In this document: positions 32,527 through 49,672 of the stretch, in pieces | Numbering within the stretch: position 1 is the stretch's first letter | Layout: each line of letters starts with the position of its first letter | Source of the DNA: Candidatus Woesearchaeota archaeon | GTDB taxonomy: Archaea; Nanobdellota; Nanobdellia; SCGC-AAA011-G17; UBA489 | Direction: 5' to 3' | Length of the DNA: 64,000 bases | Assembly: GCA_018302985.1 (NCBI GenBank) | Contig: JAGVZA010000005.1 | Span: forward strand, 10,281 to 74,280 | Position numbers and translations under genes: made by a program | Notes under the pieces: generated by a model | What the model was told of the DNA's origin: nothing | The model's input: the letters and a program-made list of their open reading frames with translations, nothing else | The model's database searches: none

Positions 32527-32599
32527 GTGACATCACTCCTTTGTTGCTTTCGCATTTTGTTTCAGTGTCCATGAAGGACAAAGCTAAGAAAGAGAAATC

Positions 32600-32636
32600 T
32601 ATTTATAAGCAAAAGGGGGGTCTTTGAGAAGTAAAC
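32600..32636. promoter_or_regulatory. conserved promoter-associated element, copy B, upstream of the PC4-like-radA operon
   Basis: Same element as 14672..14708. It lies in the intergenic region 74-110 nt upstream of the ATG at 32526. Confidence 0.55.
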
Positions 32637-32660
32637 AGATACTAGAGAATATAGGTCGGG

Positions 32661-33074: not shown

Positions 33075-33111
33075 GAAGAATCAAAGAGTGACGTCCTTTT
33101 TATAGCTTTCG

Positions 33112-34131
33112 TTATAATTGTGGAGCTTCTTTTACTAAGTCTTCAGCTAAATGCTCTGGATTTGGTTCTTCTACGCGTTGCACAAAAAATTCCATGCGTT
33201 GGAACATCTCGTTCTTAGTAACTCTGCCTGTCAAAAGCAATTGCTTACCTAGCAGCTGTTGTTTATAAGGTTCAAATAAAGAAATATTTTCTCTAAAGGG
33301 TAAAAGTGTAGCTTCATCAATGCCTGTTAATTGAAGTACTTGATCTCTAAATGCTACTGCGCGAATATTGCTCGTGCCATCATCGAAATAAAAGTTCAGC
33401 AAAGGTACAGGTTTTGGAATGACTGCTCCATGTTCTTGGCATTGTCCTTGCACAATTTTCTTGTTGCATTGGGTGCAGGCATCGTAAAATTTAGGCTCAA
33501 AAAGTTGTACAATCGTGCCAAAGAGTTGAACATTAGTATCTCCTTCTTGCAATTCATGAATTTTCTTTTTTTGTAGGCTTGGTCCGCTAGGTACTGGTCT
33601 TTCTATAACTGTTACTGTTTCACCCGGTGGATTCAAGATAAGTTGGCTCATAGTGCCTAGATGTAATTCCATGTATTGGGGATTTTGTTGATTCTGTCTT
33701 GCCATACTGTTAATAATCTTAACAATAGTGCCTTCTTGGAGTTGTCCTTGTTCCATATATTGTAAATGCTGAGTATCCCATAAAACTATTCTGATGGTGC
33801 CAGTCTCATCGCCTATTAAAAAACTGCCAACTTTGCCTTCGCGTCCTTGTTTGGAAAAAGAATGAACTTCATAAATACGTAACACTTTGCCTAAAAGATT
33901 AACATTTTTCATGCCAGCCATAACTCTATTGATCTTGACTCCTCGTCTGCGTAATTCATCTGCTAAGTTAATGCCGCATTCATTGGCAATAATATGTACA
34001 GCACCTTCTTTGCTGATTAGTCCAGAAAGCTTGTCAATTTTCTCTTTGACTTTAAGTTCTAATTCTTGATCAGTAAATCCTTTGGTTTCTTTGATTTTTG
34101 CGCAGATATCTTCGTAAGTAAGACCTAACAT
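33112..34131 (-). CDS. replication protein A (RPA, OB-fold ssDNA-binding protein with a Zn finger)
   Basis: N-terminal LTYEDICAKIKE...GLISKEGAVHIIANECGI, OB-fold segments, and a CTQCNKKIVQGQCQEHG zinc motif. Confidence 0.75.
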   Translation of the reverse strand: MLGLTYEDICAKIKETKGFTDQELELKVKEKIDKLSGLISKEGAVHIIANECGINLADELRRRGVKINRVMAGMKNVNLLGKVLRIYEVHSFSKQGREGKVGSFLIGDETGTIRIVLWDTQHLQYMEQGQLQEGTIVKIINSMARQNQQNPQYMELHLGTMSQLILNPPGETVTVIERPVPSGPSLQKKKIHELQEGDTNVQLFGTIVQLFEPKFYDACTQCNKKIVQGQCQEHGAVIPKPVPLLNFYFDDGTSNIRAVAFRDQVLQLTGIDEATLLPFRENISLFEPYKQQLLGKQLLLTGRVTKNEMFQRMEFFVQRVEEPNPEHLAEDLVKEAPQL

Positions 34132-34137: not shown

Positions 34138-34938
34138 TTAACCCCCAAATAAAGGACTGTAATTTTTTGGAGTCTCTACATTATTTAAGGATATCGCAAA
34201 TGAAAAAGATAGATAGTCTGAAAGGAAAAAAGGTTTCTGTGTCTTAGCTGTAATGAGTAAAAGTTGATTTTCTTCCTTGATAGTCCAAATAAAATCTTGA
34301 GATAAAGAGCATTTAGTAGCACTTTCTGCACGATATTCTAAAAGACAGGGAATGTTGTTGGTAAGAGTAGTAAAAAATAAACCATACTCATGTAAGTCAT
34401 AAGAAAAACTTTCAGCATAAGTAACTGGGAAAGTATAAGTAACATGTTTTCCTTGATAAGAAAGAGGAGAGGCAAAAGATCCAGAAAAGTCCATGTGTCT
34501 AGAAGTAATTGCTAAACTCAAAGTAGAGGAAGGAAGTTTTTTGAGACTAGGATAAGAAGTTGCTTGTAGCGTAGCTTCCCAATGAGATTTAACCAAGGAT
34601 AAAAACTGTGCTTCAAATTGTGCTTGAGAAAAAGTGCAAGTAGGAGAAGAAAGTAAAAGAGGTTTGCCTTGGTAAAGAGAACAATCCTCACTGGAGAAAA
34701 AAGGTGCTAGTCCATCTTGGGTAAGTTGTTGCAAAGAAGTATGCACAGCATCACGTAATGCCTGACTCACATAAAAATTAATCCTTCGTTCATCCATAAC
34801 TTCATCTAAAACAGAAGCAGAAGTTTGTCCAACTGCAGTATAAGTAACAGAATGTTGCAGTAAAGTTAAAAAAATAAGAAGTACTCCAAATCCTAGGACA
34901 ATAAGGATAAGTGCACCAGTTCCTTGTTTAGAGATCAT
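34138..34938 (-). CDS. pilin-like protein (class III signal-like N-terminus), 266 aa
   Basis: MISKQG|TGALILIVLGFGVLLIFLTLL. 4-nt overlap with the upstream gene. Confidence 0.5.
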   Translation of the reverse strand: MISKQGTGALILIVLGFGVLLIFLTLLQHSVTYTAVGQTSASVLDEVMDERRINFYVSQALRDAVHTSLQQLTQDGLAPFFSSEDCSLYQGKPLLLSSPTCTFSQAQFEAQFLSLVKSHWEATLQATSYPSLKKLPSSTLSLAITSRHMDFSGSFASPLSYQGKHVTYTFPVTYAESFSYDLHEYGLFFTTLTNNIPCLLEYRAESATKCSLSQDFIWTIKEENQLLLITAKTQKPFFLSDYLSFSFAISLNNVETPKNYSPLFGG

Positions 34939-35486
34939 GCGTTAATCACACTCTGAGCTGCTTTCCACCAACGAAGTTCTACAATGATAGGGGTGTTTTT
35001 ATGAGGGAAGAGCAGTGATTGATGATGATAAGTTTTTCCAGAAACAGGAACAGGAGAAGAAACCCAGCTTTGAGTTTGTTGCTGTACAGTAAAGTTGGAA
35101 AGAGGAGTAACAAAAGTGAGTATCCAATCAATGTGGTTCGGCGTAACATAACTAATTTCTTTCTGTGCCGCTTGAATAAATAATTGGCGATAAGATTCTT
35201 GTTCTGTAGATGATAAAAAGGAAAATGTAAGTAAGTCTCCATAAGTATAGCCCTTATCTAAAAGTTCAGGAGGTGTAGTATAAAAAGGAGGATTTGTAGC
35301 AAGAGGAGACGCTAAAAAAGTCAGTAAGGCTCTGTCAAAAGCATCTTGAAAAGGTAAATCTGCAGCAGTAAGAGATTCTTCCACAGTCTGTTGCTGGAGA
35401 GTGCAAGAAGAAAAAATAAGTATTGCTAGGAGTAAAGGAATTGCAATAATGGCTTCTAACCAATAGTTGATAAGTCCCTTACGCAC
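34935..35486 (-). CDS. pilin-like protein, 183 aa
   Basis: MRKG|LINYWLEAIIAIPLLLAILIF. 8-nt overlap with the upstream gene. Confidence 0.5.
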   Translation of the reverse strand: MRKGLINYWLEAIIAIPLLLAILIFSSCTLQQQTVEESLTAADLPFQDAFDRALLTFLASPLATNPPFYTTPPELLDKGYTYGDLLTFSFLSSTEQESYRQLFIQAAQKEISYVTPNHIDWILTFVTPLSNFTVQQQTQSWVSSPVPVSGKTYHHQSLLFPHKNTPIIVELRWWKAAQSVINA

Positions 35487-35913
35487 GAGGCACCTCTACT
35501 CTAAAAAGAGCTCGCTTGCCTTCAACTAAAACATATTCTTGATAAAAAAGCTGTGAAAGCGGTTTTTCTCGTAAAGAATCTTGTGTAGTTGTTATGCGAA
35601 CTCCAGATTCATCAATCGTATCCAAGGTAATACGTAAGGGTCTAGTAGTGCAAGTTCGTAAATGAATATCAGTAAAAGAAGAAAGATTAAAATGACCATG
35701 TAACATTCTACTTCGATCATCATAAGTAGAAAAACAAACATCAACAAGCGAGCGTCCAAAATAATAATCATTGAGAGTTTCTTGTTGTTGGGCAATTTCA
35801 AAAAAAGATTTCCCTTGTCTAGCTTGAAGAGACATAAGAATTAATCCACAAACCAAAACTAAGATGATGGAATAAATAGTAACATGGGGAAGACTAAAAG
35901 AGCCTCGCTTCAT
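35479..35913 (-). CDS. pilin-like protein, 144 aa
   Basis: MKRG|SFSLPHVTIYSIILVLVCGLIL. 4-nt overlap with the upstream gene. Confidence 0.5.
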   Translation of the reverse strand: MKRGSFSLPHVTIYSIILVLVCGLILMSLQARQGKSFFEIAQQQETLNDYYFGRSLVDVCFSTYDDRSRMLHGHFNLSSFTDIHLRTCTTRPLRITLDTIDESGVRITTTQDSLREKPLSQLFYQEYVLVEGKRALFRVEVPRA

Positions 35914-36140
35914 TTTCCAACATCCTTTCCAGAAACAAATTTAAGGTTTTGCACTGAAGGAGAAATACGTAAAGCAGAGTCAGTTAATGCTTGGTCTATG
36001 GTCGGATAACTTACTGTAGCTTTAATCACTGCTTCCTTTTCTTGACTATAATCTTGTACATAAAGGCCAAACATAAAAAGAACTAAAATAAGAAGAATGA
36101 CAAAAAACAATTGTTCTACTACAATCTGACCTCTTTTCAT
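35910..36140 (-). CDS. small pilin-like protein, 76 aa
   Basis: MKRG|QIVVEQLFFVILLILVLF, with Glu at +5 after the predicted cleavage site. Confidence 0.55.
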   Translation of the reverse strand: MKRGQIVVEQLFFVILLILVLFMFGLYVQDYSQEKEAVIKATVSYPTIDQALTDSALRISPSVQNLKFVSGKDVGK

Positions 36141-36172
36141 AAATAGGAAAGGATAGAGCTAATTTATATGAG

Positions 36173-37528
36173 TTATGATTTCGGAAAAAGATCTACTGGT
36201 TGGTCATTAGGTGGTGAAGATTTAGGGAGTTGTTGTAAATACCTTTGAAATCCTAAGGCCAAAGCTTCTGCAAAGGCAGGTAAATGGTTGTCCAAAAGAG
36301 TAAATGTATTGGTGTTGTCTGTAAAGTCTATAAACACTGCTGGAATTTGTAAACGTTCTTTGTAAAAAAGAGGATGTGATTGTTCTAGAGTAGGTTGCGC
36401 TAAAAAGAGTCCTTGTTGTGCAGCTTGTTCTAAATTCAAAGGCTTTAAGTTTAGAGTAAAATCAAGCTTGTAGACTGCATGCTCAGGTGTATCTTGGAGT
36501 TGCTGGTTATGTAAATAAACTTTGCCTGATAAAGAGCGAAGTGACTGTTCTAGTGCTTCTGCAAAGAGTTTGCTTTGAGAAGAATCTTGTAAATAATAAA
36601 GAGTTACTATGTCTTGTGTAGTCGCTGTTGAATAAGAAACTAAAGGAGAAAGAATAAGGAGTTTGTCTGCTAGAGGTGGATTAAGATTCTTGGAAAAAGT
36701 AGTTAATTTTGCTGGAAGTGTATCTGTGAGTCGAGTATAATCAGCAGAAGGAAGAGTAAAGGGAAGAGCAATAGGAAGACCGCGCATAAAAGGACTAACT
36801 CGACTAGTAGAAACCAGACTAGAAGAGGAGAAAGATTGTTGCAAGGAAGATATTAAATCTTTACCTATAGTTAAAACACGTTCTGGATCTCCAGTATTAG
36901 GAGTATAACGATGATTAAAGAAAATGCTCATGAGTTGGTTTGGATAATCTCTTTTTTGTGCGCAAGTTGGCAAGCGTGAAGAATATGCCTCTGATAAAAT
37001 GGGAGTTTGATCTGCGGTAAAATCTAAAAAAGTAGTAGCTTGGCAAAGACGTCCATCAGGAGCGATATAAGCCATAAAATAATGGGTATCAAGAGGTAAT
37101 CTATAATAAGGAGAGGTAAATAAATCATACTCACTTAGTGGAGAAACTTTCCATTGTGTAGGTTTGGTATCATCAGAATAACCATAAGAGCATAAAGGTT
37201 TGTCATTTATTTTTTTGCTCAGTAAACGCTTGTTAGTTTCCTTTTTAGTTAAATCTAAATAAACACCATCTGCTGCAGTAATCAATTGAATGACATCTTC
37301 TTTAGGAAAAGAAGGAAGAGTAACATAAGGACAGTAGCAGTCTACTTGTTGAAAACTCATACATTCTTGCAAATAATTTTGTAATTGATCATAAACCATT
37401 CTTGAACGCACATCAATTTTATTCTCAAAAAAAACTTGATTAGTACAAGAAATGGTAACAATAATAAGGATAAGAGAAAGAATAAGACCTGTAAAAAAAG
37501 GAGAAAAAGATTCTTCTGCTCGTTTCAT
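36173..37528 (-). CDS. large pilin-like / pilus-associated protein, 451 aa
   Basis: MKRA|EESFSPFFTGLILSLILIIVTI, then a large ectodomain. Confidence 0.5.
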   Translation of the reverse strand: MKRAEESFSPFFTGLILSLILIIVTISCTNQVFFENKIDVRSRMVYDQLQNYLQECMSFQQVDCYCPYVTLPSFPKEDVIQLITAADGVYLDLTKKETNKRLLSKKINDKPLCSYGYSDDTKPTQWKVSPLSEYDLFTSPYYRLPLDTHYFMAYIAPDGRLCQATTFLDFTADQTPILSEAYSSRLPTCAQKRDYPNQLMSIFFNHRYTPNTGDPERVLTIGKDLISSLQQSFSSSSLVSTSRVSPFMRGLPIALPFTLPSADYTRLTDTLPAKLTTFSKNLNPPLADKLLILSPLVSYSTATTQDIVTLYYLQDSSQSKLFAEALEQSLRSLSGKVYLHNQQLQDTPEHAVYKLDFTLNLKPLNLEQAAQQGLFLAQPTLEQSHPLFYKERLQIPAVFIDFTDNTNTFTLLDNHLPAFAEALALGFQRYLQQLPKSSPPNDQPVDLFPKS

Positions 37529-37530
37529 AG

Positions 37531-37716
37531 TTATGGACCTATAATATCTTTAATAGGCGGTCTAGATTGATTAATCTCCTTGGAAATGGAAAAAATGGTG
37601 TTGAAAAAGTTGCTCACTTGTTCTCGAAACATGACAGACAAAACAAGTAAGACTAAAATAGCAAGAATAAAGAGAATAACATACTGTAGTTCTAATGCCC
37701 CTTTTTTAAATAGCAT
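37531..37716 (-). CDS. small pilin-like protein, 61 aa
   Basis: MLFKKG|ALELQYVILFILAILVLLVL. Own TATA box (TTTAAATAAC) about 25 nt upstream. Confidence 0.55.
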   Translation of the reverse strand: MLFKKGALELQYVILFILAILVLLVLSVMFREQVSNFFNTIFSISKEINQSRPPIKDIIGP

Positions 37717-37826
37717 ATAAGAAGTTAGAGGAATGTGTTATTTAAAGGTTATGGAGTTCGTCAAAAACATTATTTATCTGAATCAGTAATAGAAAAGTGT
37801 GACAAGTTATGTGCAAAACTAGGTTT

Positions 37827-38999
37827 TTATTTCTTGTTAGGGACTATTAATTTTTGTATTCCTGTAAATAATACTTTACCTTCTCCCGTAGAAACTTGCA
37901 CAATCAGCTCTGGATATCCAATATCTAGTATGTTTTCTGTTGTCCAACTCACTTTTATTTTATCTCCATCGCGTACTATCGCTTGTTCTGTAAATGTAGC
38001 AACTTCGTCAGGTTTACCAACATCACTATCTAAAATTTTAATGACTAAATCTTCTACAATGCAATCAATAACTTTAAGATTAATAGTGACTTTTTCTCCT
38101 AAATCTTTTCTTTCTTGAAGTTCTTCTTCCCACCATTTTTTTGGAGTTTCCAAAGTTTTTCCAAATTCATCTCCCCAATAAGTATAACCTGCAAAAGCTG
38201 CTTGCACTTTACAAGCATTAGGTTTTAGTTGCTGAGCTGGAGTGGATTCATCACATAAGGGTCTATTGATATAAGTTCCAGAAAATTGTGGATTAATAAA
38301 ACACATCTGATCTGGTGTAGGCTTATAAAAATAAATTAAGAAAGGAATAGTATGGCTATCAGTAAGAAGATTTTCATTATTGGTATAAGTAAGGCTAAAC
38401 ATTGCATCCTTGCTATCTTCAATAGGTCCACTCGTCGATTGAGTCGCAAAAAAAGATTCCAAAGGATAAAGTTGTTGAGTTAAGGGTAAGGGTATAGTAA
38501 GAGATGCTGGAAAAGTATTTGCTGTAATATAACAAAGACGTTTTCTCTTTGATGCTGTATCTAAACCAAGAGGAATGCGTTTTTGTAAAACAAACTGTTT
38601 TCCTTCCTCGATGCGATAGGGGAAAAGATAGTAGCCTAAATTAGGATCTCGTTTAAGTGTAAAGGTATATTTCTCATCACCCGAGCTGGAAAGTGGTATT
38701 CTGCAAAAACAGTCACTTTTCGGTGAATTAAAACAGCTTTGAAAACTTGTAACGAAAGAGGTATATTTAGCTAGGAAATCTCCATCTGCTTGTGTTTTTC
38801 TTACCTCTTCTTCTTTGCCTGTAAGCTTGTCAAATCCAGCTTTGATGTCCTTGCTAATCTCTCGCAAAGTGCCATATTGCTCTGAAGATCCTTTTTGAAA
38901 AAAGGGAACAAGAACAAAAATAACTATAAGTGCGAGAACAGTTATAATAAGAAGATTAGGAATTTCTGTTGTTGCCTTTTTTGAAGAAAGAAGAGTCAT
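37827..38999 (-). CDS. large pilin-like / pilus-associated protein, 390 aa
   Basis: MTLLSSKKA|TTEIPNLLIITVLALIVIFVLV. ATGA overlap with the upstream small ORF. Confidence 0.5.
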   Translation of the reverse strand: MTLLSSKKATTEIPNLLIITVLALIVIFVLVPFFQKGSSEQYGTLREISKDIKAGFDKLTGKEEEVRKTQADGDFLAKYTSFVTSFQSCFNSPKSDCFCRIPLSSSGDEKYTFTLKRDPNLGYYLFPYRIEEGKQFVLQKRIPLGLDTASKRKRLCYITANTFPASLTIPLPLTQQLYPLESFFATQSTSGPIEDSKDAMFSLTYTNNENLLTDSHTIPFLIYFYKPTPDQMCFINPQFSGTYINRPLCDESTPAQQLKPNACKVQAAFAGYTYWGDEFGKTLETPKKWWEEELQERKDLGEKVTINLKVIDCIVEDLVIKILDSDVGKPDEVATFTEQAIVRDGDKIKVSWTTENILDIGYPELIVQVSTGEGKVLFTGIQKLIVPNKK

Positions 39000-39166
39000 T
39001 TTCTAGTAAGTAACCCCAAAATTCTATCAAAAATACTAGAAGATTCTCCTCGCAAAATACCAGAATAGATTAAGAGAATAACAAGAACAACTAAAGCTAT
39101 AACTAAAATAACTACTTGTTCAATAGTTATATTTCCTTTAGTTTTAGCCTGAGACAACAGTATCAC
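38996..39166 (-). CDS. small pilin-like protein, 56 aa (not in ORF track; GTG start assumed)
   Basis: Manual translation gives (M)ILLSQAKTKG|NITIEQVVILVIALVVLVILLIYSGILRGESSSIFDRILGLLTRK. Overlaps both neighbouring genes. Confidence 0.45.
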   Translation of the reverse strand: MILLSQAKTKGNITIEQVVILVIALVVLVILLIYSGILRGESSSIFDRILGLLTRK

Positions 39167-40043
39167 ATCTTTGTTTTTCTAAAGTTTTGTAATCAGTCAA
39201 AAAAATTGCTCCAGTATCTGTTCCTAATTCAAAATAATCAAAAAGGAAATAGCCTGTAGCATGAACATTCAAGCTAACATAACAAATACCTGAAGCTGCT
39301 GATACTCCAATAATGGGGCCGACTACAGGAACAATCCATCCTACTACAAAACCAATTCCAACACCTGCTGCGCAAGTACCGGCAAAACTTTCTGCCGTAT
39401 CTAGCAATTTAGAAAATGAACCACGAGAGACAGTAACATAAGTTATACCATAATTTTTGCCAGTGTCTAATGTACCTGAAGATGATTTTGAATTAATACC
39501 AATACCTCCTTGAAGATCAGCAACTATAGTGTTTCCATCTTTTTTAAATTCAGTATTGTAATCTAGTCCTGAAGCTGTTTCCATGCGTAAAGCGGCTGAG
39601 TGTAAATCTGCTTCTGTAATAAAGGGTGTTGTTTTATCTGTTTCCAGTGAATAGCAAATATAACAATATTGATGAGAAATAAATCCAGCGGCTTTTGGTC
39701 CTCCAACCATCTCCTTGCAAGTCAGCATTTTATCTAAGATAATGTGCATGGCTGCATCTTTCTGAGTTTCTCCTTTGTCCCGTTGTTTGTCAATAAATTT
39801 ATCATTAAATTTGATAATGGAAGTTGAGCACCAAGGTTTAACATGTGTAGAAAACACAGGTAATTGATTCAGCATAAGACTAAAACTGCAGCGCCATTCT
39901 TGTAAGCTCAGACGAGTAGATGTAGAGCCTACTTTAGTGATCATAGGAATAGTAACAATAAGAAAAACAACTGTGAGAATAAGAACAATGATAAGATTAG
40001 TACTTAATTCAAAACCTCTTTTATTAAAAAAAGTTTTACCCAT
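39144..40043 (-). CDS. pilin-like protein, 299 aa
   Basis: MGKTFFNKRG|FELSTNLIIVLILTVVFLIVTI. Cys-containing ectodomain and a C-terminal hydrophobic Gly-rich segment. Confidence 0.55.
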   Translation of the reverse strand: MGKTFFNKRGFELSTNLIIVLILTVVFLIVTIPMITKVGSTSTRLSLQEWRCSFSLMLNQLPVFSTHVKPWCSTSIIKFNDKFIDKQRDKGETQKDAAMHIILDKMLTCKEMVGGPKAAGFISHQYCYICYSLETDKTTPFITEADLHSAALRMETASGLDYNTEFKKDGNTIVADLQGGIGINSKSSSGTLDTGKNYGITYVTVSRGSFSKLLDTAESFAGTCAAGVGIGFVVGWIVPVVGPIIGVSAASGICYVSLNVHATGYFLFDYFELGTDTGAIFLTDYKTLEKQRCDTVVSG

Positions 40044-40176
40044 GGATGAATCTCCCGATTGCTAGAAAAATAAGAACACCTATAAGTATGGTCAATAAGA
40101 TATATACCAGCTCTTTTTCCATAAGAACAAAAGAAGTTAGCTTATTTATAAAGATTGAGGAAATAAACTTAAATCA

Positions 40177-40662
40177 TCATTTATTGGAATCGAGAACTGT
40201 TTGTATCTTTTGAAGACAATACTCTGATGGGGATTGCACTTTTTCTGTAGTTGTACCGTCTGCGTTAGGAATAGTAACAGTTTGAGGACAAGGAACATCT
40301 AAAGATTCATCGCCTGATCTAGGATAACAATAATACTTATCATATTGTTTTACATCGCCAGTCATATCAAATTCTGCTTCACCATCATTGTTTTCATCAA
40401 TAGAGAAACTTTCCTTGCAATAAGCTGAGCTGGTCCAAGAAGATTGAGGCAAGATTTCTAGAGAATCACAGCGTGCTTTGCAAATACCTACTGCAGTTAC
40501 TCTGTCTTGTCCTGCAATAGTGTCATAAAAGAAGCCACGAATGAATTTAGAAACGCCACTAGTACCGCCTAAGAAGAAAGCACCGACAACAAATAAGACT
40601 AATACGACGAGAATTGCAATAATCACCGTATTCATTGGTAATGCTTGAGCTTTACGAGACAT
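40177..40662 (-). CDS. candidate major pilin, 161 aa
   Basis: MSRKAQA|LPMNTVIIAILVVLVLFVVGAFFLGG, then a Cys-containing globular domain. Own TATA box plus a GAGGT Shine-Dalgarno. Start moved to the ATG at 40662. Confidence 0.6.
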   Translation of the reverse strand: MSRKAQALPMNTVIIAILVVLVLFVVGAFFLGGTSGVSKFIRGFFYDTIAGQDRVTAVGICKARCDSLEILPQSSWTSSAYCKESFSIDENNDGEAEFDMTGDVKQYDKYYCYPRSGDESLDVPCPQTVTIPNADGTTTEKVQSPSEYCLQKIQTVLDSNK

Positions 40663-40668
40663 AACTTG

Positions 40669-40716
40669 AACCTCTTTTCTAAAAACGTTCAACGATCCTT
40701 CCTATATAAATATTGT
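40669..40716 (-). promoter_or_regulatory. promoter (TATA ATATTTATATAGG) and GAGGT Shine-Dalgarno of the candidate major pilin
   Basis: On the minus strand the TATA-like box lies at 40701..40716 and GAGGTT at 40669..40674, with GAGGT ending 7 nt before the ATG (40662). Confidence 0.4.
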
Positions 40717-40755
40717 GGTCATTTTTTTGAATCATAGAATGTCTCCTAACTAGGA

Positions 40756-40965
40756 TTAGTCTTTCTTTTTGAAGCCTATAAACAAAGCAAGAGCTCCAAC
40801 AACAGTAATAATAATGGAATAAATACTGCCACTAGAAGGAATAAAGTTCAAGAAAGAAAGAAAACTAATGCCTTGAAGAAAGGGAAGTAACCCTAAAAAT
40901 AAAGTAAGTAATCCGAATAAAATGAAAAGTGTTTTCATATGATGCCTCCTTAGGTAAGTATACAA
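40756..40965 (-). CDS. small two-helix membrane protein, 69 aa
   Basis: Two hydrophobic helices. 16-nt overlap with the upstream gene. Confidence 0.4.
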   Translation of the reverse strand: MYTYLRRHHMKTLFILFGLLTLFLGLLPFLQGISFLSFLNFIPSSGSIYSIIITVVGALALFIGFKKKD

Positions 40966-41369
40966 GAATAGTCTGTTAGTGTTTTTAAAAGTTGTTCTTG
41001 TTGTACTTTAGTTTGAATTTGCCTTTTGCAAAGATGGTAAAGATTATCTAGCTCCTCGCGAAGAAACACGCTTTCATTGGCAATTTCCTCGCCCTTGCGA
41101 ATTTGTTCACAAAAATGATGAACTATAAAGCGCATAATTTTGATAACTAATTGGCGGCGTTTAAGGAAAAATGAGCCTTGATGTTTGCTTGCATCCGCTA
41201 AGAGGAATTGCTCAATAGTGCGAACTGATTGTAAGGCGTTGGAAATATTGTCTAGCACTTGCTGTTCTTTCTTGTTTAATTCTTGAACGTTCGTTAGTCT
41301 TCTCTTCAAAAGAAACTTTAAACTAATCAAATCTGTTTCCAAAAGTTGAGTTACAAGTTGTTGTGTCAT
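40950..41369 (-). CDS. soluble helical protein of the pilus operon, 139 aa
   Basis: No TM segment. Heptad-like Leu/Gln-rich sequence. 1-nt gap to the upstream gene. Confidence 0.4.
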   Translation of the reverse strand: MTQQLVTQLLETDLISLKFLLKRRLTNVQELNKKEQQVLDNISNALQSVRTIEQFLLADASKHQGSFFLKRRQLVIKIMRFIVHHFCEQIRKGEEIANESVFLREELDNLYHLCKRQIQTKVQQEQLLKTLTDYSCILT

Positions 41370-41370
41370 A

Positions 41371-42048
41371 CTAACGATCTTTCCAGCCTTTCCAGATCAA
41401 ACTGCCTATAATTAAAAATCCGCCAATAGCAGCCATCTGAGCGAAGGTTAAATCCATACTAAAAGAGAATTGATTACAGTCAAACAGCCAATAAAAATTT
41501 GTACAGAGCCATGTCTGTAAATCATTGAAAAGACTCGTCAATAAAACAATAGCAAGTAAAGTACCTACAACTGCAGCCCAATGTTTTTCAGTTGCTTTAA
41601 AAATACCATAATAAATACCTGCTAAAAGTGCAGCAAGAAGAACAATGATGCCGACAGGACCTAACTCATAAATAATGTAGATACCTTGTCGTTCTTCCCA
41701 GATCATAAGTCCTAAAGTAAGAGCTAATCCTACTGCCACATACAAAGATTTACCGCCCGTGTTAAAGTGTTTCAAAAAGACAGCTTTACCTATACTTAAA
41801 AAGATTATAAGAAAAATTATAGAGTCGATATAAACATGAAATTCTTCATAAAAATTAGTAATACTAAGTTGACCACCGCCATAAAATCCACCATAGCCAC
41901 CACCATATCCTCCGCCGTAACTATAATCACGATAAACTAATGCACCAGTAGGATCAAAACTAGGTTGCATGAAAATTCCCACAGTAACAATAGCTATGAA
42001 AACAAGTGCTATAGAAATCCACGGGATACGAGAAACCTCTTTTTGCAT
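41371..42048 (-). CDS. polytopic membrane protein with an extracellular GGY-repeat loop
   Basis: TM helix, then QPSFDPTGALVY, then YSYGGGYGGGYGGFYGGG, then about 5 TM helices. Confidence 0.5.
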   Translation of the reverse strand: MQKEVSRIPWISIALVFIAIVTVGIFMQPSFDPTGALVYRDYSYGGGYGGGYGGFYGGGQLSITNFYEEFHVYIDSIIFLIIFLSIGKAVFLKHFNTGGKSLYVAVGLALTLGLMIWEERQGIYIIYELGPVGIIVLLAALLAGIYYGIFKATEKHWAAVVGTLLAIVLLTSLFNDLQTWLCTNFYWLFDCNQFSFSMDLTFAQMAAIGGFLIIGSLIWKGWKDR

Positions 42049-42083
42049 AAAAGAAATTCATCCTTAGAACTATATAAAGATTG

Positions 42084-44195
42084 CTAACTAACGCCTACAA
42101 AGCTAACTGTATTGGCTAAAAGAGTAAAGACAACAATGCCTATAAAACTTACTAGAAAATAAAGAATGCCTGCAGTCAAAAGATTTTTGCTAAGACGCTG
42201 GTGTGTAGTAGTCTGATCATATCCTCGTTCAATGCGTGTAGATAATAAAGTAAGAATAATAGTGATCTGTACAACATAAATGCCAACAACTAACTGAAAA
42301 TAATAGCTGGGAATAACATCTTTAATATCCAAAACACTGACTAAAGCGCTAATGCCTCCAGTCAATCCTTGTTCTGGATTCTCTAGACTTGCAAATTGTT
42401 CTCCTAATTTGTTAATGATTGTAACCACCATGCTGCCCACACCAACAACTATGCCTGCAATTAAGGGAGTCAAAAAAGTAATTTGGCTAGTCATGCTGCT
42501 TAAGACATCTGCTAGTAAATCTTTCAATCGTTCATTAATGCGATAAATTCTAGTGATATAATCGCTGATAGTTAACAAGCTTCTGCTGACAATTTGTGAA
42601 CCTTTTTTTGCGCTTTCAACTAGAACTTTCATCGTGCTTTCAATTAAAGAACTTGGGAAAAATAATAAAGCTCCACGTTGGGGATGAAATATAGCTTCTT
42701 TAATGCTCATGCCTGCATTGCGAATATTCATGTTGACAATTCTAAAGAAATCACCAGTAGGTGTTCCTTGCATTTGTTGACTGACATCACCGAAAGCAAT
42801 CTCTGCTGGAATGCCATCGCCAATTCTATTGCCTAATTGAAATAATGCACCGCTAAACTCAACTTCCAAGGCATCTGTCTTTTCTTTGAAGGCAATCAGT
42901 TTTCTGCTTTTGACCCAATAGAAAAAAGCTAATCCTAAGGAAAGTCCAAGAGGAATCAAGAGACTCAAAAAGAGTGCACCTACTCCGTAAGGCCCATTGC
43001 CTCCTTTAAAGTCAAAGAATTCTCCGCCGAAAAAAGGAAAATCAAAGTCAGGACTAAAAAAATAAATATAAATAGGAATAAATCCTACAATGCAAAATAA
43101 CGAAATAATGGATAAAGTAATAGACAAAGGAGACACTCCATTTGCTAAGCTTTGATAGCGCTTCAAATCTGGATGTTGTAAAAGAATGTCATTTTCTCCA
43201 TAGCCCGTAGGTCTGGTGTTAAGCATAGAATTACCCAGATACATGACTAAAAAAGGTAAAATTAAATTATAAAGAAATGCAATATGATACCATTTAACCA
43301 GTCCTGATAAAAAACTGCCAATCATAGGAAACATGACTAAACCCAGAATAGGTAAGATAATACCTAACATGTGTAAGACAGTAATGGGGCTTTTCAAATT
43401 GTGTGCATAATGCAGCATCTTGTCATAAGTTCCATCCAGCATGACTTGTAAAGATTTTTCCAATAATTCCAAGCGTTTGCCTTCGCTCTGCTCATACAAA
43501 CTTCCTTCAATCAAATGAAAAGATTCTAAAAATTCTAAGTTGTATTTTCTCCATTGTTCTAAATAAGCATCCAAACTTTCTTTGATTGTAAAATATTCTT
43601 CAGTTTCTATTTGCCAAAAGACACGTTTTAAATCTAAGCTTAAAGGTCCTCCTAAGTGTTCTGCGGCAAATTTGACTGCATGTTCTAAATTAGAAGTATG
43701 ACGCATGTACATGACAATATACAGAATACACAAAACCATTTGATTGCTCACTTGTAATCTCCATCGAGTTGCAAAATAATGAGGTAATCTTGACAAAGGT
43801 TTAATTAAAACTACACCTGCTAAAATAAAAAATAAGCTAGCAGATAACAAAAGACTGCCAGCAACATAGCTGATTACTCCAATAAAGACGCCAAAAAATA
43901 CTAGGGCTAAAGAAGCTAAAGCAGCGAAGCTAGCGGTGCTGTTAGGTGTAATATCTAGATGAGAAATACGCAGAGATTCTTGAATTGCTGGAAGTTCTTT
44001 GTCTTGAACTTTAACTGGAAGAAGATGTTCTGCAAATTTGCACCATTGCTCATAATAAGTAAATCGTTTCTCCAAAGCTTCTTTGCGAAATAAGAGATAT
44101 TCGCGAGATTGCACTGGAGAATATAAAGAATCTCCTGTTGATGCTTCAAGACGCTGTTGATATTTGCGGACAACGTCGTCTACTGTCGAATTCAT
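42084..44195 (-). CDS. polytopic membrane platform protein (TadC/FlaJ/PilC-like by position and topology), 703 aa
   Basis: 4-nt overlap with the ATPase gene. Many TM helices alternate with cytoplasmic helical domains. Family membership not verified by motif. Confidence 0.55.
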   Translation of the reverse strand: MNSTVDDVVRKYQQRLEASTGDSLYSPVQSREYLLFRKEALEKRFTYYEQWCKFAEHLLPVKVQDKELPAIQESLRISHLDITPNSTASFAALASLALVFFGVFIGVISYVAGSLLLSASLFFILAGVVLIKPLSRLPHYFATRWRLQVSNQMVLCILYIVMYMRHTSNLEHAVKFAAEHLGGPLSLDLKRVFWQIETEEYFTIKESLDAYLEQWRKYNLEFLESFHLIEGSLYEQSEGKRLELLEKSLQVMLDGTYDKMLHYAHNLKSPITVLHMLGIILPILGLVMFPMIGSFLSGLVKWYHIAFLYNLILPFLVMYLGNSMLNTRPTGYGENDILLQHPDLKRYQSLANGVSPLSITLSIISLFCIVGFIPIYIYFFSPDFDFPFFGGEFFDFKGGNGPYGVGALFLSLLIPLGLSLGLAFFYWVKSRKLIAFKEKTDALEVEFSGALFQLGNRIGDGIPAEIAFGDVSQQMQGTPTGDFFRIVNMNIRNAGMSIKEAIFHPQRGALLFFPSSLIESTMKVLVESAKKGSQIVSRSLLTISDYITRIYRINERLKDLLADVLSSMTSQITFLTPLIAGIVVGVGSMVVTIINKLGEQFASLENPEQGLTGGISALVSVLDIKDVIPSYYFQLVVGIYVVQITIILTLLSTRIERGYDQTTTHQRLSKNLLTAGILYFLVSFIGIVVFTLLANTVSFVGVS

Positions 44196-47100
44196 GATGA
44201 TGGAAACTTCCTGCGTTTAACTTCTTGGCGCAACCAAGCTTCCCAATCTGCAAAAATGCGTTTATTGTCATAAACATGATGTTGTTCATTGATTTTGTCT
44301 GCGCTTTGATGAAAATAATCATTGCTTTGCACAACAAAAGGTGCTTCAAGAAGTTCTGGAAGTGCATAAGCCTGTGCTGCCTTAAGTAAAGTTTCTTTCA
44401 CTTGTGCGCGCACTAAGACTCCATCCCAGACCGCATCCCAATTGCCTGCCCATTCACGAACATTTGCAGCAATGCTTTTCAAGACTTCGCTATTGCCTTG
44501 TAATAAATCATCTGTAGGTAAAAGTGCATCTTGTTTGCTGTCATATCTGAACAAATCTACAAAGCCGCCTTGCTTTTGTGGATCATCATCCCAATGTTTG
44601 CGTACTTCTGTAATTTGTAAAACTCTTCTCTTGCTGTGTAAGCCATCTGCGCTGCGAACTGGATTGCTAACGATAATAAGATCAACTGCTTTGAAGCTAG
44701 TTTTGGGTACTCCCAAATCATTAACTATTCTATCATAAACAGCATAAGGATGTGCACCATGAATAGTTCCTGCAACAACATTTGCTAAAGCGCCAATTCT
44801 CATCGCTTCAAACAAAGCTTTAGCTTCAAGACTTCTGATTTCTCCAACAATTAAGGAACTATCACCCATACGAAGAGAAGTTCTAATGCCTTCATCAGCA
44901 GCAAGTTCATTGCCTCCGCTCATTAATGCGGCTCGTACTTTCATCGGTTGAATATTATAACCCATATTGCGTAAAGCGTCAATCGGAAGTTCAAGCGTAT
45001 TATGAAGTAAAATATTATTACAAACAAAGTTTTCATAATCTGGAACAGATAAGTCATAGACATATAATTCTGTAGAGGATAGTGGTTCAATCTCTGCAAC
45101 TTCATCCCAAAAAATGTCGGCATGAACTAATTTTTGCAAATTTTGAGTAATGTTAGTTGTTATCTGAACTTGAGTCATTAAAGTTAGGAATTTTCTTCTA
45201 CCGACATTATTATTTCTAGAGATATAATCTTGAGTATTAAAAATTTTATTATCTTTAGTAAGATTAGAAATTTCTTTTTTCAGCTGGAGAGATAGAGGGA
45301 TAATATCAGTAGTGTCATGTGTTGAACGTTTTAAGCAAAGTTTATCTAAACAATTGAGTTTGTAAGATTGTAAAACACCAATATTTTTCTTAAATTCTAT
45401 AAAATCTCTTAATGTGCTAATCCCAGCATTAAAAGTACCGTCTTTCCTTTTTTTTCCTATTCGAAGGGTAATGTCATAACCCAAGAGCAAAGTTTGAAGA
45501 TCTCTTAATAATTGATAAGAGGCTAGAGGAATAACTATTTCATTATCAGAAACACAGCCGTCTCCACTGAAAACTCCCTGAAGAACAAAAGCTATTTGTT
45601 GTTTGGAAAGACTATAAATCCATGAAGGAACTTTCTTAGTATAAGCATCTCCGCGAAGTTCAAGGATGTCTCGAAAAATAAATCTAAGAGTTGTTGAATT
45701 AATCATTAAAGATCCACCATCAGAATGAATCTTAGGGGTCAATTTGAATTGTTTTGCGGCTAAACAAACTATATTACTATCTTCTTCGTCAAAGCTAGAC
45801 ACGATTATAGATCTTTCATCATAACAGCCATCTGCTAGCCATAAGCCAACAAGCATTAAAAATTCAGAATCAAGTCTAATGTCTGTTGGTATTGGTTGGG
45901 AATTTCCAGAGTATTTATAGGATAATTTTTCTTTAAAGGGAGTAAAGTCTATATTTAAGTTCTTAAGGATAACAATAGGCAATTGTCCTAATCTAAGCCA
46001 ACGAGGAGGTATCGAACGTGTATAACCTTGTTCTTTTGCTAATTGTTTAATCTCAGAGTAGTATTTTTTTATAAATTTTTTCAAAGATTCTCCTTGTAAA
46101 ATACCTCTAGGAATTCTATCTAAATAATCTAATAAGTTAATAGTATTCTGAGCATAGTCGTTGAAAGGTATTTTTCGTATGGTAGCTATATGAGATCCTA
46201 TAGATAAATTAACGGGTTTTATTTCTTGAAGTGTGCCTTCGTCACCTAAAGTAAAAAGAGAATGATCTGCAGTAGTTTTAATAATTCGTCCAGTTCGTGT
46301 TTTAATCTGATAAATTTGCTTTTGCACTTTGTGACGAATAAGTTTTGATGGATGTGACCAAGTAAGTTTATTGTCTTTATTGAGAGAAAGAACTTGAATG
46401 GATTCACGATTCCCTAAGACTTCATGGCCTGAAAGATTATACCATGATCCATATTTTTGAATTGAAGAATCTATAAGTTTACCTATAGTGGTTTTTTGTA
46501 TGCAATTTGCTTTTTTGATAAGAATTTCTGAATCACCTGTAACACTGTCTTCAATGGAAATAATTCTATGGGTGCGCATAATTTCTACAAGTGATGCTCC
46601 CAACAAACTAGTCTTACCGCTTCCTCTTGTACCTGCAAATAATAAAGTTCTTCCGCCATCAATAGCAAAACTCAAAACTGCGGCAGCTAAAGGTGTCAGC
46701 ATTTTCTGTTGAATAAATAAAGGCAATGTCCAAGGTTTATCTCTATGTCTACGGAATGCAAAAGACAATCCGACAGGGCTTAAGGGAGTTGTAATAACAG
46801 ATACTCTGCTTCTTGCTCCGGGTATAGACAAGTCCGTATCTAGAACAGGATTTGCTTCATCTAAAGGTCTTCCGCTTAACAAACGCAATTTAGTTGCCCA
46901 ACTATCACTGTCTTCTCTGCTTGGAATAATATTAGTAACACATTCTCCATAATCTTGATGCACTAAGAAGATAGGAGTTTGACCTATAGGTCCATTCACC
47001 ATGATGTCTTGTACCTTTTCGTCTTGTAATAAAATTTCTAAAATGCCAAAACCAACAGTATAGCGCACTAAAATATCTGCTAATAGTGCAATTTGTTTGT

Positions 47101-48040
47101 AGTCAAGGGAAATTTGTTTGTGTTCTACTAGTTCTTGCAATAAATCTCTCCCAATGTTAAAAAACGTTTTTCTCATGCGTTGAGGATCTAAAAATTCTTC
47201 TTGCCGTGGCTTGTGTTCTGCTAAAACATTTCTTGCTAATTCTAAAAGAGTATATTCGTCTTCAGTTAATTTGAATTCTGGAGGATAAAGATGATAAAGT
47301 AATTTAATGTCTCCTGGTATGCGAAAAACAGTAATCTCGCTTTTGCCATTAGAATAGACATCAACTTGTTCTCCATTCAAAGGAGGTTGTGCCATCACCT
47401 GAGTATACATGAAATCGGGAGTCATCAAAGGTCGGAAGAGTTGACGGTAGAAGCTTCTGTCACCTATCTTATAGCCAGCTAATTGGCTGCGAACCACAGC
47501 AACCATCTGTGTAGAATCAAGTAAGGTGAAGAAATATTCTAATAATCCAGCATAACGTTTGCGTAAATGAAGTAAAGGCTGAACAGTTTCTCGTTCTATA
47601 ACTATTTTTTCTTCGCGTAGTAATCTCTGAACTTCAATATAGCAGCCCAAGGGATCATGACGCAATAAATCAAAGACTAAATATTCAAAGAGTGAGTTTT
47701 TTTCTTGAATAAATCCAACATAAGATTCATCAAAACCTAATGCTCCTAAAGTAAAGAGTTTTTTTCCTCGAACTAGATGATCATAGATTTTGGCAATTTC
47801 AACTAGATATTGAGTCTGTTCAGAATTATAAGAGTAGTAACGTCTCTGATGAAAAAACAAACGACTTACTGTAGGGACTTCAACTAATTTGTCAATCGTG
47901 CTTGCCATCACTAGGGGATGGTCTTCTACAGAGGGACTATGGCTCCATTTATTCGCGTCAATGCGTAAAACTTCCTCACTCCCTTCCAAAATAATTTCAT
48001 ATTCACCAGTTTTTTGTGCCTCAGGCATAAAATCTTTCAA
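44192..48040 (-). CDS. type IV pilus/archaellum-family assembly ATPase (GspE/FlaI/VirB11 superfamily), intein-containing precursor (1282 aa; 766-aa extein)
   Basis: Walker A GTRGSGKTS. IED|TLEL is restored after intein removal. Also LIVGEIRSLEA and GTIHGA boxes. Confidence 0.9.
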   Translation of the reverse strand: MKDFMPEAQKTGEYEIILEGSEEVLRIDANKWSHSPSVEDHPLVMASTIDKLVEVPTVSRLFFHQRRYYSYNSEQTQYLVEIAKIYDHLVRGKKLFTLGALGFDESYVGFIQEKNSLFEYLVFDLLRHDPLGCYIEVQRLLREEKIVIERETVQPLLHLRKRYAGLLEYFFTLLDSTQMVAVVRSQLAGYKIGDRSFYRQLFRPLMTPDFMYTQVMAQPPLNGEQVDVYSNGKSEITVFRIPGDIKLLYHLYPPEFKLTEDEYTLLELARNVLAEHKPRQEEFLDPQRMRKTFFNIGRDLLQELVEHKQISLDYKQIALLADILVRYTVGFGILEILLQDEKVQDIMVNGPIGQTPIFLVHQDYGECVTNIIPSREDSDSWATKLRLLSGRPLDEANPVLDTDLSIPGARSRVSVITTPLSPVGLSFAFRRHRDKPWTLPLFIQQKMLTPLAAAVLSFAIDGGRTLLFAGTRGSGKTSLLGASLVEIMRTHRIISIEDSVTGDSEILIKKANCIQKTTIGKLIDSSIQKYGSWYNLSGHEVLGNRESIQVLSLNKDNKLTWSHPSKLIRHKVQKQIYQIKTRTGRIIKTTADHSLFTLGDEGTLQEIKPVNLSIGSHIATIRKIPFNDYAQNTINLLDYLDRIPRGILQGESLKKFIKKYYSEIKQLAKEQGYTRSIPPRWLRLGQLPIVILKNLNIDFTPFKEKLSYKYSGNSQPIPTDIRLDSEFLMLVGLWLADGCYDERSIIVSSFDEEDSNIVCLAAKQFKLTPKIHSDGGSLMINSTTLRFIFRDILELRGDAYTKKVPSWIYSLSKQQIAFVLQGVFSGDGCVSDNEIVIPLASYQLLRDLQTLLLGYDITLRIGKKRKDGTFNAGISTLRDFIEFKKNIGVLQSYKLNCLDKLCLKRSTHDTTDIIPLSLQLKKEISNLTKDNKIFNTQDYISRNNNVGRRKFLTLMTQVQITTNITQNLQKLVHADIFWDEVAEIEPLSSTELYVYDLSVPDYENFVCNNILLHNTLELPIDALRNMGYNIQPMKVRAALMSGGNELAADEGIRTSLRMGDSSLIVGEIRSLEAKALFEAMRIGALANVVAGTIHGAHPYAVYDRIVNDLGVPKTSFKAVDLIIVSNPVRSADGLHSKRRVLQITEVRKHWDDDPQKQGGFVDLFRYDSKQDALLPTDDLLQGNSEVLKSIAANVREWAGNWDAVWDGVLVRAQVKETLLKAAQAYALPELLEAPFVVQSNDYFHQSADKINEQHHVYDNKRIFADWEAWLRQEVKRRKFPSS
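44999..46546 (-). mobile_element. 516-aa intein with a LAGLIDADG homing endonuclease domain (Ser1 ... His-Asn | Thr+1)
   Basis: Block A SVTGDSEILI, block B TTADHSLF, LAGLIDADG motifs LVGLWLADGCY and LQGVFSGDGCV, block F VYDLSVPDYENFV, block G NNILLHN|T. In frame with the host gene. Confidence 0.85.
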
Positions 48041-48151: not shown

Positions 48152-48523
48152 ATGCAAGAAGGGCAAGAAATAACACAGGTCATCGTTGATTTAAACAATC
48201 GTATCAGAACTTTAGAAAACAAATACAATTTGCTCGGTGAAAGATTATTAGTAGTCAATCAAAACATGATCGAAGAGTATAAACGATTGCTTAGAGAGAT
48301 GAAAATAATTAATGAAGATCTAAGAGAAATGCGGCAAGAAACTATGCTCACACAAGACGCAATGAGAAACATGGTCAAAGAAATGGAGTTATTTGCAAAA
48401 AAAGAGCAAGTAAGAGTCCTGGAAAAATATATTGACTTAATTAATCCTATGCGTTTCGTAACGACAGAAGAAGTAGAAAGTCTCATTATACAAAAATCTG
48501 CAGGTGTAAAACGTGGCAAATGA
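48152..48523 (+). CDS. coiled-coil protein, 123 aa
   Basis: Heptad-rich sequence. Divergent from the pilus ATPase promoter. 11-nt overlap with the next gene. Confidence 0.4.
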   Translation: MQEGQEITQVIVDLNNRIRTLENKYNLLGERLLVVNQNMIEEYKRLLREMKIINEDLREMRQETMLTQDAMRNMVKEMELFAKKEQVRVLEKYIDLINPMRFVTTEEVESLIIQKSAGVKRGK

Positions 48524-49669: not shown

Positions 49670-49672
49670 GAA

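Follow-up and report, generated by a model that had tools for sequence, protein, structure and literature searches.

The 64,000-nucleotide stretch of Candidatus Woesearchaeota DNA analysed here (the window) carries on its minus strand, at 34138..48040, a type IV pilus-like gene cluster that is typical of its tiny-genome Woesearchaeota (DPANN) lineage. Together with an unlinked peptidase gene, the cluster contains, as judged by homology, the components of a type IV filament machine: a secretion ATPase, a platform protein, a prepilin peptidase and a series of substrates with class III signal-like leaders. All four of these features of the type IV filament (TFF) superfamily were found, the platform indirectly. 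We consider it probable that the locus encodes a lineage-specific type IV filament (pilus) system of Woesearchaeota and other cluster-2 DPANN, whose filament most likely contacts, and possibly breaches, bacterial walls. The locus probably helps the cell to attach to or attack other cells, and adhesion or host attachment is the function that we infer for it.

A reading made from the sequence alone had already taken the region for an archaeal type IV pilus-like operon of a small-genome archaeon, and the analysis below supports it. That sequence-only reading had named in advance three findings that would speak against it, namely N-termini not predicted as prepilin signals, a 703-aa protein without T2SSF similarity, and an ATPase that groups with conjugative VirB11 rather than with pilus or archaellum ATPases. 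We looked for each and found the opposite, in the case of the 703-aa protein by an indirect route.

The gene cluster and its assembly machinery

An ORF check recovered all of the minus-strand open reading frames (ORFs) reported at 34138..48040, with the sizes and junctions reported, among them the 4-nt overlap between the ATPase gene (44192..48040) and the gene for the 703-aa platform protein (42084..44195). After the platform gene come, in order, ORFs of 225 (with a GGY repeat), 139, 69, 161, 299, 56, 390, 61, 451, 76, 144, 183 and 266 aa, most of them joined by overlaps or by gaps of no more than 35 nt; three longer gaps, of 93-133 nt, come before the genes for the 161-, 299- and 61-aa proteins. 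The TATA-like TTTATATA and the GAGGT that had been placed upstream of the 161-aa gene are both in the sequence. The window is archaeal and low in GC (about 35%), RadA and RPA genes adjoin the locus, and no Rfam family reached threshold anywhere in the window.

The first gene encodes a secretion ATPase of the GspE/CpaF/FlaI clade (PF00437, 1.5e-11, with PDB and NCBIfam matches). Its 1282-aa precursor contains an intein, and splicing would leave a 766-aa extein with a visible Walker A motif (GTRGSGKTS) and an N-terminal extension of ~300 aa. Because intein-free orthologs in related loci are ~760 aa long, this extension is native to the ATPase family. Searched against PDB sequences, the extein groups with archaeal GspE (Archaeoglobus AfGspE, 2oap, 1.9e-29), CpaF (6e-25) and FlaI (2e-21) and not with VirB11 (3e-7), and among NCBIfam models it is matched by FlaI (1e-39) and TadA (8e-37), with TrbB and VirB11 far lower (1e-15 to 1e-18). 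Those last, weak matches are what could be cited for a conjugative or type IV secretion apparatus driven by a VirB11-type ATPase; given the much stronger GspE, CpaF and FlaI matches, a locus with no VirB4, VirD4 or relaxase, and the presence of a T2SSF platform and class III substrates, we consider such an apparatus the least probable of the explanations weighed here. An archaellum, that is, a motility organelle, is scarcely more probable. The best NCBIfam models are indeed FlaI for the extein and FlaK for the peptidase, but both scores fall far below the equivalog cut-offs (137 vs 550 bits for FlaI, 38 vs 330 bits for FlaK), the ~300-aa extension is unlike the minimal archaellum ATPases, and Pfam and NCBIfam scans found no FlaH/KaiC-like, FlaF/G, FlaC/D/E, FlaX or archaellin-domain match in any ORF of 34138-48040, in agreement with the earlier claim that archaellum accessory genes are missing from the locus.

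The ATPase ORF, taken mechanically, starts at a TTG (48040), and the public call is 1278 aa; the true start is more likely the ATG at 48028, which has a TATA-like GTATATAAA ~25 nt ahead of it and would imply a leaderless transcript. The intein itself (516 aa, 44999..46546, minus strand; precursor residues 499-1014) matches PF14890 (6.4e-24) and carries a LAGLIDADG homing endonuclease (PF14528, LAGLIDADG_3, 4.9e-12). It begins with Ser, ends HN|T(+1) and splits the ATPase motif IED|TLEL. In one related locus (L047) an intein ends at the same site, and in another (L018) the ATPase has a similar, intein-containing length (1259 aa); most relatives have no intein, and this sporadic distribution suggests a mobile intein allele. 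Two other LAGLIDADG_3 matches in the window, at 25435..26556 (plus strand, 4e-11) and 13461..14651 (minus strand, 1.5e-3), suggest further homing-endonuclease-related genes.

The 703-aa polytopic protein encoded next (42084..44195, minus strand) is identified here, by bridging homologs and by predicted fold, as a divergent single-chain platform protein of the T2SSF/TadC/FlaJ type. A profile search of 1.84 billion representative sequences returned 1287 relatives, and the 70 full-length ones (all E<1e-96) were aligned and scanned singly against Pfam: 37 of the 70 matched PF00482 (T2SSF; best 5e-9) and eight matched the related Spore_III_AB. When a broader profile of the family was searched against PDB sequences, the top matches were GspF cytoplasmic domains (E=0.017), and the AlphaFold2 (AF2) model (predicted local distance difference test score, pLDDT, 77.5; predicted TM-score, pTM, 0.73) gave in Foldseek, as its sole high-probability matches (0.97-0.99), the EpsF and OutF cytoplasmic domains over ~115 residues (TMt 0.64-0.74, rmsd ~3.1-3.6 Å). 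The similarity to T2SSF thus comes through the homologs and through the fold of this domain. A profile made from close homologs (A1) retrieved only spurious matches to G-protein-coupled receptors among PDB sequences, an hhalign test for internal repeats gave no signal (Neff 2.4), and a whole-chain Foldseek search found no global structural neighbour.

An A24 prepilin/preflagellin peptidase had been placed apart from the operon at 23331..24197 (plus strand), and this gene is real: it matches PF01478 (4.6e-13) and the NCBIfam models FlaK (1.4e-9) and EppA (1.2e-3), and the first-Asp region WHDLKTREVPD and the GGGD motif are in the sequence. It is unlinked, ~10 kb from the nearest operon end.

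The platform family occurs in at least 518 species-representative genomes of Woesearchaeota/Nanoarchaeia. Nearly all of the best 80 platform loci are labelled Woesearchaeota, Nanoarchaeia or Nanoarchaeota (the complete AR20 genome is among them), and the remainder are a few metagenome-assembled genomes (MAGs) with another phylum or none. The sequence-only reading had suggested comparing synteny in related MAGs, and most of the 23 long related loci that we tabulated share one layout: a TraB-family gene is followed by one for a PRC-barrel-like protein and by three paralogous membrane protein genes of ~180 aa, then come a coiled-coil pair in divergent orientation (~130 and ~220 aa), an ATPase of ~760 aa, a platform of ~715 aa, 8-11 class III ORFs, and finally RPA. 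An Aenigmatarchaeota contig has the same set, in which a T2SSE ATPase and a platform are accompanied by homologs of both coiled-coil proteins, by ~180-aa paralogs in four copies and by proteins with KKG leaders. The platform family is mostly unannotated: a Candidatus Woesearchaeota MAG has a protein 100% identical to the window's platform under the name 'hypothetical protein', and, among the matches listed with source names, nearly all family members are 'hypothetical protein' and none has a precomputed Pfam domain.

The class III signal-like proteins

Downstream of the platform lies a long run of proteins that begin with a short basic stretch, a predicted cleavage site and a hydrophobic helix. 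We searched all window ORFs for [KR][GA] with, no more than 8 residues further on, an 18-residue stretch that has a mean hydropathy of at least 2.0. Ten consecutive ORFs match between 34935 and 40692, as against four matches in the other ~57 kb, one of them (15584..16528) lipoprotein-like; about 0.45 matches would be expected in 6.5 kb, which gives a Poisson P of about 1e-10. In the 70 related loci, the 253 ORFs downstream of the platform yield a leader consensus of MNKKG| plus a hydrophobic helix, and the small class III proteins of these loci are acidic at +1 and +5/+6 (e.g. KKG|DxxWEE). On the clustering and the conserved consensus we take these leaders as predicted class III signals. At least eleven such proteins had been claimed; ten fit the strict pattern, and the 266-aa protein, with Gln at -2 (KQG|), fails it even though its orthologs are canonical. 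The set had also been called unusually large, which it is not, since 8-11 class III ORFs are typical of related Woesearchaeota loci.

The proteins, all encoded on the minus strand, can be followed from the platform outward with the help of profile hidden Markov models (HMMs) of the families that they form across loci and of a close relative, L084. The first is the 161-aa protein (40177..40662; family 5, HMM 4.9e-46; leader MSRKA|QALPMN; six Cys), which is the best conserved of these class III proteins and a candidate structural pilin; it has homologs in 29 related loci and is 56% identical in L084. Its leader had been cut at RKAQA|LPMN in the earlier reading; the orthologs (KKG|QELSLNT) move the predicted site to RKA|QALPMN. 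Next comes a 299-aa protein (39144..40043; family 1, HMM 2.9e-14; NKRG|FELST; eight Cys) with a second, C-terminal Gly-rich hydrophobic segment at residues 219-256; family 1 is found in 36 loci and supplies the first pilin-like gene after the platform in most of them. The 390-aa protein (37827..38999; SKKA|TTEIP; eight Cys; a weak family-7 match, 3.9e-5) has no Pfam match, and its L084 ortholog is only 229 aa long and 28% identical. The window protein has a ~150-aa beta-rich C-terminal extension that this ortholog lacks, which illustrates how rapidly modules can be gained at this place in the operon.

Interspersed with these are tiny Flp-like pilins. The first, of 56 aa (38996..39166; mature form ~45 aa), has the leader TKG|NITIEQ with Glu at +5, and its L084 ortholog (NRRG|DLTIES) is 41% identical. 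The second, of 61 aa (37531..37716; KKG|ALELQY), is 61% identical in L084 and matches Flp1_like at 4.9e-4, below the cut-off; Flp1_like also leads the Pfam matches of related small pilins, 7 of 115 of which match it (best 3.3e-7). Neither ORF is called in the public annotation of the window contig (L083). We regard them as real genes because they are conserved with their leaders, and called, in L084, and because two types of small pilin recur across related loci. A 76-aa protein (35910..36140; KRG|QIVVEQ, Glu at +5; 34% identical in L084) is in the public calls.

Of the remaining proteins, the one of 451 aa (36173..37528; MKRA|EESF) combines an N-terminal pilin-like module with a C-terminal half of Amidase_3-like predicted fold and is taken up in the next section. 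It is followed, after the 76-aa protein, by a 144-aa protein (35479..35913; family 3, HMM 5.4e-8; MKRG|SFSLP), by a 183-aa protein that is 36% identical in L084 (34935..35486; MRKG|LINYW), and by the 266-aa protein (34138..34938; family 2, HMM 5.6e-19), whose degenerate KQG| leader is replaced by canonical KKG or KKA leaders in its positional orthologs; family 2 closes the pilin-like series ahead of RPA in related loci. Most of the class III proteins thus fall into orthologous families, with the 451- and 183-aa proteins unassigned and the 390-aa protein placed only weakly. The large ectodomains had been described as unassignable to any family. That holds for Pfam, since scans of all window pilin-like proteins against Pfam and NCBIfam gave nothing significant, but most of them belong to conserved Woesearchaeota-specific families and the 451-aa protein is predicted to be Amidase_3-like. 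Even Cys counts, which would fit surface exposure, are found in five of the seven larger window pilins and in most ectodomains of related families. We dropped the idea of a triplicated module of one large and one small pilin: BLAST among the window pilins showed paralogy in the N-terminal helices only.

The pilin-like proteins diverge far faster than their neighbours. A comparison of the window with L084 gives identities of 79-85% for the platform, for RPA and for the coiled-coil proteins, as against 28-61% for the pilin-like proteins (32% and 33%, for example, for those of 451 and 266 aa), which is the pattern expected, on sequence comparison, for surface-exposed subunits under diversifying pressure.

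So many different class III proteins, with no single obviously dominant pilin, would also suit a display or secretion pseudopilus (T2SS- or archaeal bindosome-like), a short structure that would expose or release class III proteins, cell-wall hydrolases included. The idea gains from the enzyme domains fused to class III leaders in related loci, from a weak match of the extein to the BasE bindosome ATPase model (5.5e-17), and from the proposal of 'functionalised' archaeal type IV filament machineries with class-III-signal binding proteins (Sivabalasarma & Albers 2026). Set against it are the two or three tiny helix-only Flp-like pilins of most loci, which are typical of filament-forming Tad/Epd pili, and the finding that none of 146 large class III ORFs has a substrate-binding-protein domain. 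We judge the pseudopilus rather unlikely, though the strongest competitor to a true pilus.

Murein-related domains and the likely use of the filament

A hint to function comes from the C-terminal half of the 451-aa protein, which reads as Amidase_3-like (…VTLYYLQDSSQSKLFAEALEQSL… and …IPAVFIDFTDNTN…LALGFQRYL). In its AF2 model, residues 1-115 form a helix-plus-sheet module with pLDDT mostly above 70 (10-residue block means 52-89), and residues 290-435 score about 46-87. Foldseek ranks 2-14 are peptidoglycan amidases (CwlD, CwlV, Rv3717/Ami1, LytH and AmiB), with E-values of 5e-6 to 1e-3, a probability of 1.0 and TMt of 0.5-0.62 for a model whose pLDDT is only 57; the first rank goes to an integrative model that includes B. 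subtilis YrvJ, taken here to be an amidase. In an hhalign comparison, AmiA/B/C of E. coli and Bartonella align co-linearly with the protein across 184 columns, though weakly (P=0.004, probability 8.5%). As modelled, residues ~200-435 resemble the Amidase_3 enzymes (CwlD, CwlV, AmiA/B/C, Rv3717 and LytH) in predicted fold and in the order of helices and strands; unlike those enzymes, the 451-aa domain has a ~55-residue low-confidence insertion and is fused to a class III pilin module. With moderate confidence, on the strength of the model, we regard the domain as Amidase_3-like, probably non-catalytic and possibly murein-binding.

Related loci provide more conventional examples. A Pfam scan of the 146 large class III ORFs of this operon type found no domain that they share, yet some of those ORFs carry murein hydrolase domains, which individual scans confirmed: a 682-aa protein with SLT (6e-20) and Peptidase_M23 (4e-26) domains (L061:15183-17228), a 531-aa protein with SLT (1.5e-13; L058:10357-11949), a 350-aa protein with M23 (2.7e-12; L049:18335-19384), and a 518-aa ortholog of the window's 266-aa protein with Amidase_2 (1.2e-24; L042:20229-21782). 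A scan of viral_contigs for diverse amidases found nothing. To our knowledge archaea have no murein, so these hydrolase-bearing class III proteins look like pilin-fused effectors against bacteria, and for the same reason the amidase-like and hydrolase domains make contact with bacterial walls the most likely job of the filament. Lytic/murein transglycosylase genes of some Woesearchaeota have been read before as a means of attack on bacteria, with no mention of pili (PMC9723730). A bolder reading, less likely than not, is that the filament of Woesearchaeota, and perhaps of other cluster-2 DPANN, would be a cell-wall-engaging weapon or grappling device against bacteria, with fast-evolving minor pilins as modular carriers of murein-binding or murein-cleaving domains at its tip, such as the Amidase_3-like domain of the window and the SLT plus M23, M23 and Amidase_2 domains of relatives. 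If true, this would be an archaeal pilus-borne effector system, and it would give direct genomic evidence that many Woesearchaeota have bacterial, not archaeal, partners or prey.

For the pilus that we favour, the sequence of events can be sketched from established knowledge of leader removal, ATP-driven subunit extraction and helical polymerisation in type IV filament systems. The unlinked A24 peptidase would cut the short basic leader (MNKKG|) off about ten membrane-inserted pilin-like proteins. The hexameric CpaF/FlaI-type ATPase, once its intein has been spliced out, would power the single-chain T2SSF-type platform, which would raise the processed subunits from the membrane and stack their hydrophobic N-terminal helices into a filament. 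Judging from size and conservation, the likeliest bulk subunits are the tiny Flp-like proteins (56, 61 and perhaps 76 aa) and/or the 161-aa pilin, and the larger Cys-rich proteins probably serve at the tip or as minor subunits, priming assembly and bearing domains for binding or with effector functions. A cell that lives as an episymbiont or predator would then use the filament to contact, and possibly to breach, the walls of bacterial cells.

Several observations weigh against parts of this reading. The platform of the window has no direct Pfam or NCBIfam match, and its Foldseek E-values are poor (about 2), so that what is good there is the probability and the TM-score, and those for a small domain only. 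The AF2 model of the 451-aa protein, built from a 6-sequence alignment, is of low confidence (mean pLDDT 57), and neither this protein nor its six homologs match Pfam, a PDB profile search being negative as well. The zinc-ligand and catalytic residues of the amidases are not matched in the hhalign register with AmiC, which is itself uncertain: SIHAD aligns to SPLVS (Leu for His) and the catalytic Glu to an invariant Asp401. Because both the zinc-ligand His and the catalytic Glu are replaced in that register, no enzymatic activity can be claimed for the domain. The genuine hydrolase fusions are confined to about five of the 70 related loci, and the window has none.

A further alternative arises from the genes immediately downstream. 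At 31209..34131 (minus strand) lie RPA, a 137-aa Cys-rich membrane protein, a 91-aa protein and RadA, and RPA may be co-transcribed with the pilus genes. DPANN archaea have limited biosynthetic capacity, and a DNA-uptake or DNA-exchange pilus (competence- or Ups-like) could deliver DNA that RPA and RadA would then handle: RPA follows the last pilin gene on that strand at a distance of 6 nt, and where the downstream flank is long enough it is present in 31 loci and RadA in 11, several loci having the order RPA, ~150 aa, ~85 aa, RadA. This adjacency is weak evidence, because the whole ~25-kb region is collinear in relatives, unrelated housekeeping genes (TraB-family, DEAD helicase) included. The RPA and RadA genes are presumably the housekeeping copies, no DNA translocase or Ced/ComEC-like gene turned up among the neighbouring ORFs scanned with Pfam, and the Aenigmatarchaeota locus has no adjacent RPA. 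We therefore consider a DNA pilus improbable, and a wall-contacting type IV pilus remains our preferred explanation.

Partner genes, neighbours and known systems

The sequence-only reading had bounded the system at 34138..48040. The core gene set is there, but the conserved system reaches beyond it, to a coiled-coil pair at 48152..49148 and probably to a set of membrane proteins at 49151..50790; since both groups of genes are co-conserved with the core in related loci and in Aenigmatarchaeota, the functional unit is larger than had been proposed. The coiled-coil genes (123 and 211 aa, overlapping, plus strand) are divergent from the ATPase gene, and their homologs adjoin the ATPase in 59 of the 80 related loci and in an Aenigmatarchaeota locus. 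They are partners conserved with the system and probably correspond to the 'CCP' genes of Hamm et al. 2024, to which we matched them by description. The three polytopic membrane proteins of ~180 aa (172, 177 and 190 aa; minus strand) are paralogous by BLAST, recur upstream of the ATPase in ~50 related loci, and are represented by four copies near the ATPase and platform in the Aenigmatarchaeota locus (L082). All 452 of their homologs are 'hypothetical', almost none with a Pfam match, and we regard them as candidate accessory components of the system.

Three further genes (all minus strand) separate the platform from the pilins. A 225-aa membrane protein with a GGYGGGYGG repeat and five hydrophobic segments (41371..42048) has homologs at the same position in 13 related loci and no Pfam or NCBIfam match; a 139-aa soluble helical protein (40950..41369), 79% identical in L084, has only sub-threshold matches in those databases; and a small protein with two transmembrane (TM) segments (40756..40965; 60-69 aa, 60 aa in the public call) has homologs in ten related loci.

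Other surface-type genes lie further off on the minus strand. At 27462..31115, an 862-aa protein with right-handed beta-helix and NosD domains has an N-terminus (MQKRGLLQKGFILTLALLL) that resembles a class III signal or signal anchor. Its neighbour, of 333 aa, contains 17 Cys and a lipobox-like LLTGC, and we count the two as candidates for surface proteins that do not belong to the operon. The stretch 11087..20403 holds about ten ORFs (99-521 aa) with essentially no Pfam matches, among them a 395-aa protein with a class III-like start (MKRGFSRKGG…, hydrophobic from +8) and a lipoprotein-like 314-aa protein. A search of these unannotated ORFs for another pilus locus turned up neither T2SSE nor T2SSF; the run may be another lineage-specific surface gene cluster.

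Type IV filaments are well known as a kind, and a lineage-restricted locus of the present type was already noted by Hamm et al. 2024 (Nat Commun, PMC11291902), who describe CpaF, TadC and coiled-coil proteins encoded at two loci that are conserved in cluster-2 DPANN (Woesearchaeota, Pacearchaeota, Nanoarchaeota, Aenigmarchaeota and Nanohaloarchaeota). By gene content and by that description, the window locus fits this cluster-2 DPANN type IV pilus (T4P)/coiled-coil type: a CpaF-like ATPase adjoins a TadC-like platform, coiled-coil genes flank them, and the same core is found here in Woesearchaeota and in Aenigmatarchaeota. The paper centres on the coiled-coil proteins of Nanohaloarchaeum and, in the passages available to us, does not mention a ~10-gene pilin array, tiny Flp-like pilins, ~180-aa paralogs or hydrolase-bearing pilins. 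Nor did the literature that we searched contain a description of an array of about ten pilins with Flp-like members invisible to gene callers, of the rapid divergence of these pilins, or of recurrent murein-targeting fusions. A 2026 census of archaeal TFF systems (Sivabalasarma & Albers) places only 'a few DPANN' under its subsystems, and a widely cited groundwater study reported T4P components to be missing from DPANN genomes and used pili as a marker of Candidate Phyla Radiation (CPR) bacteria among imaged cells.

The locus is thus under-recognised, its platform family being mostly 'hypothetical' and its tiny pilins partly missed by gene callers, and recognising it affects how ultrasmall piliated cells in cryo-electron microscopy images are read. 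It also supplies concrete candidates for the attachment machinery of Woesearchaeota, of which we know of no cultured representative. If the link between pilins and murein domains is true, it would offer a testable handle on the hosts of Woesearchaeota, a long-open question, and on how those hosts are breached.

Among characterised systems, the Epd pilus of Methanococcus maripaludis ('System 1') and the bacterial Tad/Flp pili are similar in several respects. The window ATPase is CpaF/TadA-like (CpaF 6e-25, TadA 8e-37), the operon is multi-gene with several minor pilins, and the 56-, 61- and 76-aa proteins (G|NITIEQ, G|ALELQY and G|QIVVEQ) are candidates for very small helix-only pilins of the Flp type, with Glu near +5, the Flp1_like match of the 61-aa protein being sub-threshold (4.9e-4). 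There are also differences. Where those systems have two platform genes (TadB and TadC, or EpdJ and EpdK), the window and its relatives have one fused protein, of 703 aa in the window; the window ATPase is lengthened by a long stretch at its N-terminus; its operon has other accessory genes; and the window peptidase, which is encoded outside the operon, is FlaK/PibD-like (FlaK 1.4e-9 vs EppA 1.2e-3) rather than of the dedicated 9-TM EppA type used with Epd.

A further parallel is the T4P of Saccharibacteria (CPR), in which small major pilins are accompanied by domain-bearing minor pilins that bind the host cell wall (PMC11623550). That system is a bacterial T4aP-type pilus with PilB, PilC, PilD and retraction ATPases, homologous to the present one only at the superfamily level, and its accessory domains are lectin-like or beta-propeller rather than murein-hydrolase-like. 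What the two would have in common is an ultrasmall episymbiont equipped with many minor pilins, some of them bearing large C-terminal accessory domains.

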